Of a stretch of DNA of 64,000 bases, positions 3,872-8,086 are shown in pieces. The stretch is from assembly GCF_030384885.1 (NCBI RefSeq), contig NZ_CP128613.1, one strand, 5' to 3'. The position numbers were made by a program, and so were the translations under genes. Positions within the stretch are counted from its first letter, which is position 1; each line of letters starts with the position of its first letter. The notes beneath the pieces were generated by a model. The model saw nothing but the letters and a program-made list of their open reading frames with translations. It was not told the origin of the DNA and did not search any database. This DNA comes from Escherichia coli. Its GTDB lineage: Bacteria > Pseudomonadota > Gammaproteobacteria > Enterobacterales > Enterobacteriaceae.

Positions 3872-4797
3872 GTATTCGCATAATCCCGCAAGATGAGCTG
3901 GGTTCGAGCGAGAAACGTACGGCGGATATGATTCCGCCGTTATTGTTCCCTCGGCTCAAAAATTTATACAACCGCCGCGCTGAACGTCTGCGCGAGCTGG
4001 CAGAAAATAATCCGCTGGGTGATTACCTGCGTTTTGCTGCGCTTATCGCCCACGCCCAGGAAGTGGTGCTGTACGACCATCCGCTGGAGATGGATCTGAC
4101 CGCGCGCATTAAAGAAGCCAGCGCACAAGGCAAGCCACCGCTGGATATTCACGTTTTGCCGCGTGATAAGCACTGGCAAAAGCTGCTGATGGCAATGATT
4201 GCTGAGCTGAAACCTGAAATGAGCGGCCCGGCGCTGGCAGTGATTGAGAATCTGGAGAAGGCATCAAGCCAGGAGCTGGAAGATATGGCCAGCGCACTGT
4301 TTGCCTCTGATTTCTCGTCCGTCAGCAGCGATAAAGCGCCGTTTATCTGGGCTGCACTGTCACTCTACTGGGCGCAGATGGCCAATCTGATCCCGGGCAA
4401 AGCCCGCGCTGAATACGGCGAACAACGTCAATATTGCCCGGTTTGTGGTTCTATGCCGGTGTCCAGTATGGTGCAAATTGGCACCACTCAGGGTCTGCGT
4501 TACCTGCACTGCAACCTGTGTGAAACTGAATGGCACGTAGTGCGCGTAAAATGCAGCAACTGTGAACAGAGCGGCAAACTGCATTACTGGTCGCTGGATG
4601 ACGAACAGGCCGCGATTAAAGCCGAAAGCTGCGATGACTGCGGCACTTACCTGAAGATTCTTTATCAGGAAAAAGAGCCGAAAGTTGAAGCCGTGGCAGA
4701 TGACCTCGCCTCTCTGGTACTGGATGCGCGAATGGAGCAAGAAGGCTACGCCCGCAGTTCCATTAACCCGTTCCTGTTTCCGGGTGAAGGGGAGTAA
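3868..4797 (+). CDS. fdhE: Formate dehydrogenase formation protein FdhE
   Basis: 309-aa ORF with paired CxxC motifs ([27 protein letters not shown]); overlaps the fdoI stop. Confidence 0.93.
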
Positions 4798-4979
4798 TCT
4801 CTGACGTTTTCCGGGTGGCGCAGGTCGCCCGGATTACAGTTGATAGGGTATGACGACACCATCTCTCGTATTCCGCGTTACCCATTCAAGACCATGCTGT
4901 TAGTGCCTGTTTGGCCTCATTCTTCCCGCCAACACATCGATAAGGTTATTGGTATGTCACTGATGACAAGCGTAAGATT

Positions 4980-5083
4980 GCCTGATGCGCTGCGCTTATC
5001 AGGCCTACCAATAAACTGCAATATGTTGAATTTGCACGACTTTGTAGGCAGGATAAGGCGTTCACGCCGCATCCGGCATGAAC
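4980..5083. repeat. REP/BIME palindromic units in the fdhE-yiiF convergent intergenic region
   Basis: Sequences gcctgatgcgctgcgcttatcaggcctac and gtaggcaggataaggcgttcacgccgcatccggcatgaac match the enterobacterial REP consensus. Confidence 0.7.
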
Positions 5084-5127
5084 AACTCGCACGTTGTCAG
5101 CAATCTGATTGATATCATTTTTTCCCA

Positions 5128-5346
5128 TTACCATTCCTCGCGCAGCTTACGCTGGTATTCGACACCATCTTCCTCACATCCTTGCCAGATGCCAAAAGCA
5201 CTGGTTCTTGCTGTTTGCGATTGATTTACCTGGTATTGATCTACCGCTTCCCGTAATAATTCCGCACGAGGAAGATTACACTGCACCTCAAGATCATCAA
5301 GTTGCTTAATCACCTCATTCGATAAATCGAGTAAAATTCTGCCCAT
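5128..5346 (-). CDS. yiiF: Ribbon-helix-helix (CopG-like) small protein YiiF, ~72 aa
   Basis: The 80-aa ORF contains [22 protein letters not shown]...; the internal ATG at 5346 gives the 72-aa form and sits ~7 nt downstream of a GGCAGG Shine-Dalgarno-like stretch. Paralogous to yiiE. Confidence 0.75.
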
Positions 5347-5455
5347 ATCCATACCTGCCAGAGAGTTCATAAATATCTCGCCAATATCATTTTGAATCTA
5401 TGGAGAGAAAAGTACCTTTGTCGAATGCTTAAAGAAAGTGCATTTACGTATCACT

Positions 5456-5499
5456 TTTATTTTTGCGAGGCGTTTTCCAGATATGATGTAACAGTTGCA
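5456..5499 (-). promoter_or_regulatory. Conserved cis-element copy 1 (core ttttgcgaggcgttttccaga), ~110 bp upstream of yiiF
   Basis: The 21-bp core recurs at 5901-5921 and 8021-8041 with 1-2 mismatches. Copies 1 and 2 also share the downstream acagttgca. Function is inferred, not shown. Confidence 0.4.
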
Positions 5500-5586
5500 G
5501 TTATTATAAGTTCAAGTAAAACAACCTTGTATTAATACCAGAATAAGGGCATCTGGTTTTTATATTCAAGAATAAAAAATTTTTTG

Positions 5587-5805
5587 TCATTCCTTATGCT
5601 CCTTACACTGATCATCGACCCCCACTGTCTCCCCCTTTTGCCTGCCTCCCTTTGCTTTACGCACCGGGAATTGCTGACGTTCCAGATATTGCTCTACCGC
5701 TTCGCGTAAAATTGCAGATCGTGAAACCTTACGCCAGCCCCGAAGCTTGTTCAGCCGTTTAATTGCCTCGTCTGATAAATGAAGAAAAACCGTACTCATC
5801 ACCAT
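5587..5805 (-). CDS. yiiE: Ribbon-helix-helix (CopG-like) small protein YiiE, ~72 aa
   Basis: ORF 5587..5835 begins at a TTG; the internal ATG at 5805 is preceded by AAGGTGG (5-nt spacer) and gives MVMSTVFLHLSDEAIKRLNKLRGW... (72 aa). Confidence 0.78.
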   Translation of the reverse strand: MVMSTVFLHLSDEAIKRLNKLRGWRKVSRSAILREAVEQYLERQQFPVRKAKGGRQKGETVGVDDQCKEHKE

Positions 5806-5895
5806 CGCCACCACCTTACATATATCGTTCATCAATGCATGGTGCGAAAATTACGCCGAAAATTTAATTAATAAAAGCTGATTTTTGTATCTTGT

Positions 5896-5939
5896 TTTAT
5901 TTTTGCGAGACGTTTTCCAGAAATAATGCTACAGTTGCA
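5896..5939 (-). promoter_or_regulatory. Conserved cis-element copy 2, ~90-130 bp upstream of yiiE and divergent from the 6054 gene
   Basis: ttttatttttgcgagacgttttccagaaataatgctacagttgca aligns with copy 1 over ~44 bp. Confidence 0.4.
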
Positions 5940-6053
5940 TTCCTTTCAATTATTATTGAAAAACGGTTCAGCTATCGTCAGGGATGATTTACTATTCTTC
6001 ATCAGATGCTGGCGCCCTCACAGGAAAGAAGTGGTAAATAATAAGGATGAGTT

Positions 6054-6593
6054 ATGGATGCCATGAATATGTTTTGCTCAGTAATATTTATTTTCTTTAT
6101 TGGTTTTGCATGGATCTTCGGTTACCTCATCCGCATGATGTACCCGAAAAAAATCAGCGTTTTTACCGCTCCAGGGTTTAGCGGGACCGTTACCCTGCCA
6201 AAAGCAGGAGACTACGCGGTAACTATTACACTCCCACATAATAGCGGCATTGCGTCAAACCTGCCCGGCGCGAGTTTTTATTCAGCGCAATTTAGTATAT
6301 CTACGACTGGTAGGCAGCAAGATATTGCGCTGCAAAGAACAGGGAAGTGGGGAGCTTACTCGTGTAACAAAGATTTCAGTGGCAATAATAGCCATATTAT
6401 TGGCCTGTTTCACTGTCATCAAACTCCGGCAAATTACGACATTATCTGTACTAATCCGGAGGTCATTCACGACACCTATAAAGTGGAGATCATTAACTAT
6501 ATCTCACTTGGAAAACAGATGATGAAAACCATCCCCGGTTGGATCCTTGTTTTTATTGCGATAGGGTTACTTATTATTCCGCAAGTAAGTTAA
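6054..6593 (+). CDS. Hypothetical membrane protein, 179 aa, with N- and C-terminal hydrophobic helices
   Basis: ATG preceded by AAGGATGAG (Shine-Dalgarno); hydrophobic stretches FCSVIFIFFIGFAWIFGYLI and IPGWILVFIAIGLLIIP; AT-rich; followed by a hairpin terminator. No family recognised. Confidence 0.6.
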   Translation: MDAMNMFCSVIFIFFIGFAWIFGYLIRMMYPKKISVFTAPGFSGTVTLPKAGDYAVTITLPHNSGIASNLPGASFYSAQFSISTTGRQQDIALQRTGKWGAYSCNKDFSGNNSHIIGLFHCHQTPANYDIICTNPEVIHDTYKVEIINYISLGKQMMKTIPGWILVFIAIGLLIIPQVS

Positions 6594-6623
6594 TGGCAGA
6601 GATGACTGCACTGCATCCATCGC

Positions 6624-6660
6624 AGACCGGTCAGTGCTGCCACCAACCGGTCTTTAATTT
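6624..6660 (+). terminator. Candidate intrinsic terminator after the 179-aa membrane protein gene
   Basis: Hairpin agaccgg-N16-ccggtct followed by ttaattt. Confidence 0.45.
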
Positions 6661-6939
6661 CTAGTAGTAGTAAATTTGCGGATAACAGTCCGGGAACCAG
6701 ACGATTCCTTGCGGATCATCCCCCTGCATTACCCGATAACATTGGCGTCGATCATCGGCACGACGGCGAAGCGTAGTGTAGAGCCGCTTCCATTCATGAT
6801 CGCCCGGTGTACTGTAGTTTACCCAACAATCCATTGAAGGATGACGCCATTTACCTGTGAGTGTTGGGATCCCTGAATGCTTATGCGGCTTCGCTTTACC
6901 ATTACGATCCCGGTCTTTACGCGTATTAAATGTGGACAT
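6661..6939 (-). CDS. Hypothetical protein, 92 aa
   Basis: ATG at 6939 is preceded on the minus strand by GCAGGAG (strong Shine-Dalgarno); no family recognised from sequence. Confidence 0.5.
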   Translation of the reverse strand: MSTFNTRKDRDRNGKAKPHKHSGIPTLTGKWRHPSMDCWVNYSTPGDHEWKRLYTTLRRRADDRRQCYRVMQGDDPQGIVWFPDCYPQIYYY

Positions 6940-7000
6940 TTTTAGTCTCCTGCTAAGAGTTCTAAAAATGTGCTTCCTTAAAATAGTTCATCATTTTCCC

Positions 7001-7213
7001 TTAATTCGAATAGCGTGCTTTTGCACGAATTTCCGATACGCGGGGACCATTATGATAACGTCGATGTCCACACATCCAACAAGAGCACATACAGGGAGTA
7101 CGAAAGCAAACACCTGATGCTTTTTTGCTTCCATCGCCTGCTGTGCGATAACGACGGCGGATTTTTTTTAATCGCGCCATATGATGGCGACGTTCAGCAC
7201 GATTACGGGTCAT
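7001..7213 (-). CDS. Hypothetical small basic Cys-rich protein, 70 aa (CxxxxCxCxCxxC)
   Basis: ATG at 7213 with a CAGGAG Shine-Dalgarno that lies inside repeat copy A; Arg/Lys-rich N-terminus and a Cys cluster. Could be a spurious GC-rich ORF. Confidence 0.35.
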   Translation of the reverse strand: MTRNRAERRHHMARLKKIRRRYRTAGDGSKKASGVCFRTPCMCSCWMCGHRRYHNGPRVSEIRAKARYSN

Positions 7214-7219
7214 AGCAAT

Positions 7220-7317
7220 ACTCCTGAGCAGGCGGCACTATGCCGCTTTCATAGGAGTTCTGAATGCTGGTGCTTTCTGTATGGCATAACCATGCCTCTA
7301 ACGGTTAAGTGCTTGCA
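7220..7317. repeat. 98-bp direct repeat, copy A
   Basis: About 94% identical to 9037-9134 in the same orientation; contains nested inverted repeats (ctcctg...caggag and gcggca...tgccgc). Overlaps the last codons of the HigA-like gene. Confidence 0.85.
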
Positions 7318-7588
7318 GCACATGTTGCGGATCATTGGCAATCGCTCGCAGCAAAGCCTTTGCAGGCCCGGTCGGTGAACGCCGCCCCTGCTCCCAGTTA
7401 CGCAACGTGTCTACGCTTACGGAAATAAGATCGGCAAATTTAGATTGTGACAACCCTGAAGCACGGCGTATTTCTTTGATTTTCATAGCATCAACTTCAA
7501 AAGTCCGTGAAGGCTGTCGCGTTCCTTCAATAATTTCATTCATCTGGGCCATGCTGTGAGTCAACCGCTCAAAAAGTGCCTTATCCAT
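7298..7588 (-). CDS. HTH (XRE-type) antitoxin, HigA-2-like
   Basis: 96-aa ORF with a helix-turn-helix segment (IKEIRRASGLSQSKFADLISVSVDTLRNWEQGRRSP), immediately downstream of and abutting the toxin-like ORF. Confidence 0.8.
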   Translation of the reverse strand: MDKALFERLTHSMAQMNEIIEGTRQPSRTFEVDAMKIKEIRRASGLSQSKFADLISVSVDTLRNWEQGRRSPTGPAKALLRAIANDPQHVLQALNR

Positions 7589-7900
7589 TTACCACCTCGT
7601 ATTTAACAACCGGAGCATTGCTTTTTCCTGGGGAGACAGATCATCTTTAATACCCTTACGATAAATAAGCAGTAATCTGATCTCATAATGTTTAACCTGA
7701 TGAAAGTAAATAACCCTGACACCAGCACGTTTCCCCTTTTCTCCTGAGACCCATCGAACCTTTCTTAACCCACCAGTTTCAGGTATTACCTCACCGTAGT
7801 CAGGATTCAAGGCCAGGAAAAACTGAAAACGACTGAATTCATCGTCATTCAGCAGTTTTTGAACATCTTCTGGGAAAATTTCCGTTTCGATGAAGAGTAT
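7589..7900 (-). CDS. HigB-2/Gp49-family (RelE-superfamily) toxin-like ORF; no canonical start codon upstream of the conserved N-terminus; possible pseudogene or non-canonical start
   Basis: Called ORF 7589..7810 starts at a TTG. The frame stays open upstream to a stop at 7943-7945 and encodes ...VILFIETEIFPEDVQKLLNDDEFSRFQFFLA..., which resembles this family's N-terminus, but with no ATG/GTG/TTG. The 7900 boundary (an ATA codon) is a guess. Confidence 0.6.
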   Translation of the reverse strand: MLFIETEIFPEDVQKLLNDDEFSRFQFFLALNPDYGEVIPETGGLRKVRWVSGEKGKRAGVRVIYFHQVKHYEIRLLLIYRKGIKDDLSPQEKAMLRLLNTRW

Positions 7901-8015
7901 AACTGTACGCCATTGGCTTAGAGTAACAATCCTTTTTGTACGTCATTGACGTACCCCTGAAACCACTAGCTTACTGATAGTGCTACAGCAAAACCACGTC
8001 TCTGCCGAGTTTGTC

Positions 8016-8041
8016 TTTACATTTGCGAGGCGCTTTCCAGA
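8016..8041 (-). promoter_or_regulatory. Conserved cis-element copy 3 (tttacatttgcgaggcgctttccaga) in the divergent region between the toxin gene and the esterase gene
   Basis: Matches the core of copies 1 and 2 with 2 mismatches over 21 bp; flanks diverge after ccaga. Confidence 0.4.
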
Positions 8042-8086
8042 TTTTCCACGCCCGTGAATTTCCCTGTATCCATCCAGTAAAAACGG

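Follow-up and report, generated by a model that had tools for sequence, protein, structure and literature searches.

Orphaned VapB-type antitoxin genes yiiE and yiiF and a predicted CRP-S site at a toxin-antitoxin turnover hotspot in Escherichia coli

Analysis of a 64,000-nucleotide stretch of Escherichia coli DNA (contig NZ_CP128613.1; "the window" below) suggests that two small neighboring genes, yiiF (5128-5370, minus strand; 80 amino acids in the RefSeq annotation, 72 from the K-12-equivalent start at 5346) and yiiE (5587-5805, minus strand; 72 amino acids), are orphaned VapB antitoxin genes, and that an element repeated upstream of both is a CRP-S site through which Sxy and cyclic AMP (cAMP)-CRP would control them; we put the probability of this combined reading at roughly 0.7. 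The genes are located in a toxin-antitoxin (TA) turnover hotspot between fabY/alpha-beta-hydrolase and fdhE. Both conclusions remain within known kinds of genes and sites, and their interest lies in the regulatory prediction and in a series of TA turnover events behind a conserved SOS/CRP-S control region. In the accessible literature, yiiE and yiiF are named only as uncharacterised regulators; two "y-genes" of almost every E. coli strain would thereby gain an origin, as VapB antitoxins that outlived their toxin, together with a prediction of control by Sxy plus cAMP-CRP.

yiiE and yiiF as vapB-derived genes

From the sequence alone, the two genes had been described as tandem paralogues encoding ribbon-helix-helix (RHH) proteins, possibly orphan antitoxin-like regulators with no toxin beside them, and our analysis agrees on each of these points. 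Both open reading frames are as described, and their products are 36% identical over 77 amino acids (BLASTP, E = 5e-11). YiiE matches Pfam RHH_1 at 1.4e-11. YiiF alone stays below threshold in Pfam (RHH_3, 0.048), and its membership in the RHH class is given by a profile of its family, which matched PDB entries 2K5J and 7BY2_A ("CopG family") at about 1e-39 to 1e-40 and the CopG structure 1B01 at 0.024. The title of 2K5J is "uncharacterized protein yiiF"; the structure of YiiF has thus been solved.

The assignment to VapB comes from synteny. Annotated records of Citrobacter freundii and Klebsiella pneumoniae show the order dtd, fabY, alpha/beta-hydrolase gene (minus strand), CopG-family gene, vapC, and fdhE (minus strand), and in Enterobacter sp. 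kpr-6 the 20-nucleotide core of the repeated element is followed by a YiiF-like gene and then by a gene for a 126-amino-acid PIN protein (PIN domain, 8.9e-19) adjoining fdhE. A genome that we call E. albertii-type, after the name of its NCBI protein cluster, encodes a protein in which a YiiE-type N terminus is joined to a normal VapB tail; directly after it comes an intact PIN gene whose product is 76% identical to Citrobacter VapC. By these syntenic vapB-vapC pairs in Citrobacter, Klebsiella, Enterobacter, and the E. albertii-type genome, YiiE and YiiF are VapB-type proteins, and the search for a cognate toxin family, which the sequence-only reading had proposed, points to the PIN toxin VapC. 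In a multiple alignment, YiiF was 77%, 64%, and 70% identical to the RHH proteins that precede vapC in C. freundii, K. pneumoniae, and Enterobacter, respectively, and remoter plasmid homologues (31-40% identity) overlap annotated vapC genes. No paper tying yiiE or yiiF to VapBC was found in the accessible literature.

The closest characterised relative is the syntenic K. pneumoniae pair, deposited as PDB 7BY2/7BY3 with VapB (7BY2 chain A) and "Ribonuclease VapC," the subject of a study by Kang et al. (2020, J Med Chem) as cited in PMC11117207. It occupies the same chromosomal site (hydrolase/vapBC/fdhE), its antitoxin has the RHH "CopG family" N terminus, and the 64% identity to YiiF extends over the whole aligned length, including the tail LGLWQ.CEEDG.EYQR.LR.EW. 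E. coli differs in having only fragments of vapC and two tandem vapB-derived genes, one of which, yiiE, has a degenerate tail.

No intact PIN toxin gene adjoins yiiF or yiiE. A 14-amino-acid remnant of the vapC 5' end (5093-5134, minus strand; identified by three-frame translation against C. freundii and K. pneumoniae VapC) overlaps the stop codon of yiiF in the way seen in intact vapBC operons, and it is separated by repetitive extragenic palindromic (REP)/bacterial interspersed mosaic element (BIME)-type repeats (5001-5083; Rfam ES036, 45.8 bits, above the gathering threshold, with a partial naRNA4 match) from a decayed vapC pseudogene (4837-4953, minus strand; tblastn with VapC, E = 3e-5 to 1e-4, and translation). 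The pseudogene retains the N-terminal segments TNNLIDVLAGR/NEAKQALTAW and a C-terminal segment, HGLEWVTRNTRDGVVIPYQL, that ends in a stop codon; residues from about 31 to 99 are deleted, and there are frameshifts in addition. Both flanks of the REP repeats encode a DxNxLxD-like VapC N-terminal motif, a duplication. After yiiE there is no space for a toxin gene, since the 87 nucleotides to the next element hold only a hairpin. Because the vapC gene downstream has decayed through deletion and frameshifts, with REP elements between its fragments, we regard yiiF as an orphaned vapB; as only broken vapC follows yiiF and nothing follows yiiE, both are therefore orphan antitoxins and not a TA system.

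The two proteins have diverged in different parts. YiiF keeps the C-terminal VapC-binding-type tail almost unchanged in the alignment. YiiE has an intact RHH domain and a tail that diverged in frame and can still be aligned in frame at the DNA level, but that has lost the hydrophobic residues W, Y, L, and W to R, D, E, and a stop. By analogy with VapB biology, these residues probably act in toxin binding, and their change would be the expected outcome of release from it. Homologues of the YiiE type were found only in Escherichia and Shigella, and YiiE is nearer to Citrobacter VapB (47%, tblastn) than to E. coli YiiF (36%, BLASTP). The presumed DNA-reading beta-strand also differs between the two proteins (TVFLHL in YiiE, RILLDL in YiiF). 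The locus is structurally polymorphic (L049/L050, 3001-3225; L048, 3001-3593): some E. coli strains carry a single yiiE::yiiF fusion gene, and the E. albertii-type genome has its YiiE-type vapB beside an intact vapC.

The repeated element and its match to the CRP-S motif

As the sequence-only reading had claimed, the same element precedes each gene: the copies at 5455-5499 (upstream from yiiF) and 5895-5939 (upstream from yiiE) are 45 nucleotides long and 89% identical. A third copy (8015-8059), 62% identical overall, is found upstream from the neighboring higB-like/nadS pair, where the 20-nucleotide core recurs, so the statement that this TA locus shares the upstream element also stood. Each copy precedes its gene (yiiF, yiiE, or the higB-like gene) by about 85 to 160 nucleotides and lies on the sense strand of that gene. 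Their common 20-mer, TTTGCGAGRCGYTTTCCAGA, occurs three times in the window against 0.02 occurrences expected. Of 5426 complete E. coli genomes, 5413 carry the element twice.

The opposite strand of the core has the sequence TTTT-TGCGA-GGCGTT-TTCCA. The E. coli CRP-S motif of Sinha et al. (2009), as quoted by Søndberg et al. (2019; PMC6728893), is 5'-T4G5C6G7A8-6N-T15T16C17C18A19-3'; it is asymmetric and orientation independent and acts in a class-I-like manner (PMC6728893), and the half-site described by Cameron & Redfield, T1T2T3T4G5C6G7A8, has a T-rich 5' flank, TTTTGCGA (PMC1635313). All three copies match TGCGA-N6-TTCCA at 10 of 10 positions and are the sole matches in the window (three versus 0.23 expected). 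Predicted site 1 (TGCGAGGCGTTTTCCA on the plus strand; 5464-5479, minus strand) is in the repeat upstream from yiiF, predicted site 2 (TGCGAGACGTTTTCCA on the plus strand; 5904-5919, minus strand) is in the repeat upstream from yiiE, and predicted site 3 (TGCGAGGCGCTTTCCA; 8024-8039, no strand assigned) is in the middle of the divergent region between the hydrolase gene (plus strand) and the higB-like/nadS operon (minus strand). Site 3 is kept at the orthologous position in eight genomes from several genera, and the yiiE and yiiF sites of K-12 are both 10/10 matches. A full-text literature search for the motif string returned no match.

For comparison, upstream regions of K-12 genes reported to be induced by Sxy were fetched and scanned; among the sites considered, that of sxy is confirmed in the literature, and those of ppdD, ybaV, and chpS are candidates. 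The region upstream from sxy contains aattTGCGAGGCTCTTTCCG, which fits the site as published: the half-sites are TGCGA and TTCCG, and the conserved one is closer to the promoter. The sxy site, TGCGAGGCTCTTTCCG, equals the element at 13 of 16 positions, and the two have TTTGCGAGGC in common. The candidates are aattTGCGAGGCGTTACGAA upstream from ppdD, ttttTGCGAGGCGGCTTCAG upstream from ybaV, and ttttTGCGAGACGACTCGCA upstream from chpS. The stretch TTTGCGAGGCG is common to the yiiF copy, the higB-like/hydrolase copy, and the candidate ppdD and ybaV sites; the yiiE copy is off by one spacer base. The element thus resembles E. coli CRP-S promoters (Psxy, ppdD, ybaV [comEA], hicAB P1, chpSB, and higBA) in its 16-bp asymmetric core TGCGA-N6-TTCC(A/G), the T-rich flank, the TTTGCGAGRC(G/T) stretch, use in either orientation, and a predicted class-I-like upstream position. 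That regulon is already known to include TA operons: overexpression of Sxy has been reported to induce chpSB, higBA, and hokD, and Sxy induction of hicAB in E. coli has been reported likewise. The present case differs in that the genes are orphan antitoxins, not DNA-uptake genes or complete TA pairs, behind a predicted site, and in that two divergent promoters, of which one also has a LexA box, share a single site. Partial likenesses to PurR, MetJ, Ada, MarA/SoxS, SlyA, and LacI-family boxes had been seen by eye and were dropped once the CRP-S consensus fitted exactly. Overall, a CRP-S site is the best explanation for the core of the repeated element, with predicted control by Sxy/cAMP-CRP rather than by YiiE or YiiF.

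The same half-sites might instead be read as an ordinary CRP site, independent of Sxy, or as the site of another host factor that activates or represses these promoters. The TGCGA half-site does resemble the CRP core TGTGA, the 6-bp spacer is correct, and another protein could account for the strong conservation of TTTCCAGA. Against this, C at CRP-S position 6 has been reported to weaken CRP binding about 80-fold and to make Sxy necessary, and the weak TTCC(A/G) half-site is needed specifically for Sxy-dependent induction at Psxy (PMC6728893). Together with the extended identity to sites upstream of Sxy-induced genes, which points to the CRP-S class, these reports make an ordinary site unlikely.

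Conservation of the core bears on whether the repeat has any function. Both upstream regions, of yiiE and of yiiF, are degenerate copies of the whole hydrolase-to-TA intergenic region, and the repeat could accordingly be a functionless relic of tandem duplication, or its similarity could be kept by gene conversion between the two upstream regions; the duplication of the genes took in the entire hydrolase-vapB intergenic region with a degenerate remnant of the LexA box, and the 5' part of the 45-nucleotide repeat (TGCAACTGT...) is limited to Escherichia copies of the yiiE/yiiF type, including that upstream from the E. albertii-type vapB. The core behaves differently. Its half-sites are invariant over at least seven genera in which the flanks cannot be aligned, the two repeats are 89% identical over 45 nucleotides compared with 36% amino acid identity for the coding regions, the site is kept in 5413 of the 5426 E. 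coli genomes, and its spacing to -10-like hexamers is conserved. Sites found by synteny keep both half-sites and vary in the spacer alone (TGCGAGCCGCTTTCCA in Klebsiella and Citrobacter; TGCGAGACTCTTTCCA upstream from the E. albertii-type vapB). When the hydrolase-to-TA intergenic regions of E. coli, two Citrobacter species, Klebsiella, Enterobacter, Superficieibacter, and Phytobacter were aligned, the conserved islands were the LexA box by the hydrolase start, the 20-nucleotide core, a TAnnTT block, and a leader preceding the start codon; the rest was unalignable. We consider a functionless repeat very unlikely.

Least credible of all is that the element is a sigma-54 promoter, although the sense strand reads TGGAAA-N-TCGCA and, in our own reading of the sequence, the GG-N10-GC spacing would suit a -24/-12 arrangement. 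The element has TGGAAA in place of TGGCAC, and all 20 positions are conserved, including the spacer, unlike in sigma-54 promoters. In term searches, the main texts of the K-12 sigma-54 chromatin immunoprecipitation sequencing (ChIP-seq) and RpoN genomic SELEX (systematic evolution of ligands by exponential enrichment) papers gave no mention of yiiD, yiiE, or yiiF, and the nearest site listed in the ChIP-seq map, as far as the main text presents it, is inside fdoI. Three further candidates were discarded: a small conserved open reading frame over the element (FCEAFSR frame), since R/Y variants alter amino acids and the flanks are not conserved; a mobile-cassette end or integron attC-like site, since the motif is about 100 nucleotides inside a relBE islet (strain E69 compared with Nissle), not at its boundary, and no inverted repeats were found; and a -35-like TTGCGA in the element, for which no conserved -10 partner was seen by eye in either orientation.

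Retention of the element also sets yiiE and yiiF apart from solitary antitoxins and anti-addiction modules, which they resemble as antitoxin genes outlasting their toxin. The retention of the yiiE/yiiF element is near universal in the species (the 5413 genomes have both copies), and the genes have a conserved predicted activator site in addition; these two features together suggest a regulated role rather than simple decay.

Promoter architecture and proposed control

The spacing of the core to putative promoters suggests how the site would act. On the TA side, all 12 of the orthologous or paralogous promoters compared (those of yiiE and yiiF in two strains, of five vapB orthologues, and of three higB-like genes) have a TAnnnT hexamer at a gap of 49 to 50 nucleotides. 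In the window, the predicted -10 hexamers are TACTTT for yiiF (5409-5414, minus strand; 49 nucleotides from the CRP-S site, chosen by the conserved TAnnnT spacing), TAATTT for yiiE (5848-5853, minus strand; 50 nucleotides), and TAAGCT for the higB-like/nadS operon (7968-7973, minus strand; 50 nucleotides). On the hydrolase side, TATAA(A/C) is located at 49 to 50 nucleotides, followed at 56 to 57 nucleotides by a CTG-N10-CAG LexA box, in eight of eight genomes; in the window, the perfect LexA (SOS) box CTGTACATTCATACAG (8097-8112, plus strand) directly follows the -10-like hexamer TATAAA (8090-8095) of the hydrolase promoter. If these hexamers are -10 elements, the center of the site would fall near -70.5 relative to either promoter, not far from the -71.5 of class I, and the spacing of 49 to 50 bp on both sides suggests class-I-like, Sxy-dependent activation. 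The conserved LexA box predicts an SOS-regulated esterase/lipase-like hydrolase gene, which also shares the CRP-S site. No intrinsic terminators were found, and sigma-70-consensus promoter-like sites were below shuffle expectation.

This architecture also bears on the view, implied in the sequence-only reading, that YiiE and/or YiiF have the shared element as their operator and would bind all three copies, regulate their own and each other's genes, and control the neighboring TA operon as well. RHH antitoxins are normally autorepressors, and the element is indeed conserved upstream of yiiE, yiiF, and the higB-like gene. That part of the earlier proposal was nevertheless not supported. The core is asymmetric, with neither the tandem or inverted subsites typical of RHH operators nor a reported spanning inverted repeat; it matches the CRP-S consensus at 10 of 10 positions and shares an extended half-site with the sites upstream from sxy, ppdD, and ybaV. 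A position about 50 bp upstream of the predicted -10 hexamer, not over the promoter, and an occurrence beside operons with unrelated antitoxins (RelB and helix-turn-helix [HTH] proteins) and beside non-TA genes likewise argue against an own operator, and the difference between the presumed beta-strands makes one operator common to YiiE and YiiF unlikely. Taken together, we judge own-operator function to be quite unlikely. Intact vapBC leaders carry short inverted repeats (ATATAC-N5-GTATAT; ACATATA-N11-TATATGT) that are degraded in E. coli; these repeats, which are nearer the start codon, could be VapB operators in the intact loci, but this is suggestive only.

In the orphan-antitoxin and CRP-S interpretation, the ancestral state, as synteny shows, was an SOS-box-bearing hydrolase gene divergent from a vapB-vapC operon. 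In E. coli, vapC has decayed and two tandem vapB-derived genes are left, yiiF retaining the VapC-binding tail and yiiE the DNA-binding domain alone. cAMP-CRP and Sxy (TfoX), acting at a site about 70 bp upstream of weak sigma-70 promoters, would activate yiiE, yiiF, and higB-like/nadS in a class-I-like manner, and the third copy would also activate the divergent, LexA-repressible hydrolase gene; all of these would then join hicAB, higBA, and chpSB in the Sxy "competence" regulon. The RHH proteins would most likely bind other DNA, nearer their own start codons, for autorepression, and with no toxin in cis YiiE and YiiF may act as small regulators or stand-by antitoxins. H. influenzae toxTA and E. 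coli hicAB offer a plausible template for yiiE/yiiF and higB-like/nadS: in these systems, a CRP-S promoter (P1 in hicAB) unrepressed by the operon's own antitoxin is combined with a second, antitoxin-repressed promoter. The analogy is limited by the families involved, Gp49/RelE-HTH and HicAB there and VapB-RHH here, and by the absence of a remaining toxin here. If the prediction is true, orphan antitoxins, a second higB-like operon, and an SOS-box esterase would join the poorly understood E. coli Sxy regulon, and the recurring, unexplained link between competence regulation and TA modules would be strengthened.

Several points weigh against this interpretation. The -10 hexamers, and hence the -70.5 position, are themselves predictions, and by our own count the site in the relBE islet (L015) is apparently at about -47.5 from its best -10 hexamer, which does not correspond to a standard class-I placement. 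Because the cross-species scan looked for the exact 20-mer, invariance among its matches arises partly by construction; sites free of this bias are those of Klebsiella, Citrobacter, the E. albertii-type genome, and the K-12 promoters. A comparison of this strain with K-12 gave dN/dS ratios of 0.47 (yiiE) and 0.36 (yiiF), against 0.04 (fdhE), on very few substitutions; with such modest ratios, YiiE and YiiF may be only weakly constrained. Published work counts yiiE among the genes bound by H-NS and responsive to SlyA and places an RpoS SELEX peak in the spacer between yiiD and yiiE; by these reports other regulators act there too. Finally, no accessible full text ties yiiE or yiiF to Sxy, and the array of Sinha et al. 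(2009), outside that search, may list them.

Neighboring genes and the core at other TA loci

On the 3' side of yiiF and yiiE, fdoH, fdoI, and fdhE are annotated on the plus strand, with fdhE ending at 4797. Beyond yiiE are three annotated hypothetical genes (6054-6593, plus strand; 6661-6939 and 7001-7213, minus strand) whose products have no Pfam or NCBIfam match. The 179-amino-acid product of the first has hydrophobic stretches at both ends that look like membrane segments by eye, and the 92- and 70-amino-acid products of the others are very basic. At the matching place, the E. albertii-type locus has two open reading frames comparable to them in size.

Next come nadS (7298-7588, minus strand; NCBIfam NadS, 1.2e-16; Pfam HTH_3), an HTH antitoxin-type gene, and its partner, a higB-like (RelE-family) toxin gene (7589-7900, minus strand) that RefSeq calls "hypothetical." An orthologue of the latter in another locus of the scan (L013) matches Pfam RelE (PF06296) at 24.6 bits, under the gathering threshold of 27 bits. 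The start codon of the higB-like gene in the window (7898-7900, minus strand) is ATA, where Citrobacter, other E. coli, and the E. albertii-type locus have ATG; because of this substitution, the toxin may not be translated, and nadS would then be another near-orphan antitoxin. The divergent alpha/beta-hydrolase gene (Abhydrolase_3, hormone-sensitive-lipase-like) is at 8129-9037 on the plus strand. K-12 lacks the hydrolase, higB-like/nadS, and hypothetical genes that are found here between yiiE and fabY, and the earlier wording that the pair is at an islet boundary is thus fair. In K-12, the islet is replaced by an AT-rich fabY-yiiE spacer of 850 bp with no annotated gene (L043, 3440-4291); just its final 195 bp or so align to the window, at 80% identity, and hydrolase remnants sought in it were not found. 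An Rfam E-value search of 4700-8300 returned only the REP-derived ES036/naRNA4 matches and nothing on the repeated element.

In C. amalonaticus and in the window, higB-like/nadS follows the site that precedes vapBC elsewhere, together with a homologous leader; it therefore appears that TA coding regions have been exchanged behind a fixed control region. The locus offers a series of TA decay and replacement behind one control region. Its stages are vapBC still intact, vapB left as an orphan, a paralogue with a degenerate tail, the fusion of yiiE with yiiF, and the replacement of vapBC by higB-like/nadS.

A scan for the exact 20-mer, with one genome per species and no statistical test, gave 35 loci, mostly in Enterobacteriaceae. 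In other Enterobacteriaceae, the 20-mer also adjoins unrelated TA modules (RelB/ParE, Gp49/HTH, and RelE-like/NadS) and non-TA genes; Gp49/HTH pairs were found beside it between ilvY and ilvA and in the infA-clpA region. It is possible, although we hold this only tentatively, that the CRP-S site and leader form a conserved, reusable control region at TA-turnover hotspots in Enterobacteriaceae, through which Sxy would command a network of TA modules and orphan antitoxins far larger than the few known operons. Hydrolase/fdhE, nrdG/cybC, ilvY/ilvA, and infA/clpA would be examples in that rather speculative scheme, the fdhE site being one at which different families have the same site and leader. 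If it is true, yiiE and yiiF may be kept in nearly all E. coli strains as Sxy-timed antitoxins or repressors, for example, for blunting incoming VapC-type toxins or for adjusting the response in DNA uptake or SOS.

Some of these loci have features of their own. In E. coli E69, the 44-bp nrdG-cybC spacer is replaced by a RelB/ParE-type islet (L015, 4612-5323) that is about 0.7 kb long and has a CRP-S-like site within it; the islet is also present in some other Escherichia and absent from strain Nissle (L037). Matches to C4 antisense RNA (RF01695) were located 150 to 250 nucleotides from the 20-mer in four loci (L004, 863-949; L008, 5250-5333; L019, 6127-6214; L022, 1783-1867). In the infA-clpA class, the promoter between the two has a LexA-like box (CTG-N10-CAG). 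A 145- to 151-amino-acid protein without family assignment comes next. An ARAGORN search found no tRNA fragment near the motif in the infA-clpA class. In Lelliottia sp. V86_10, a CRISPR array (Rfam CRISPR-DR4 repeats; L019, 6881-7987) is found about 1 kb from the CRP-S-like site.

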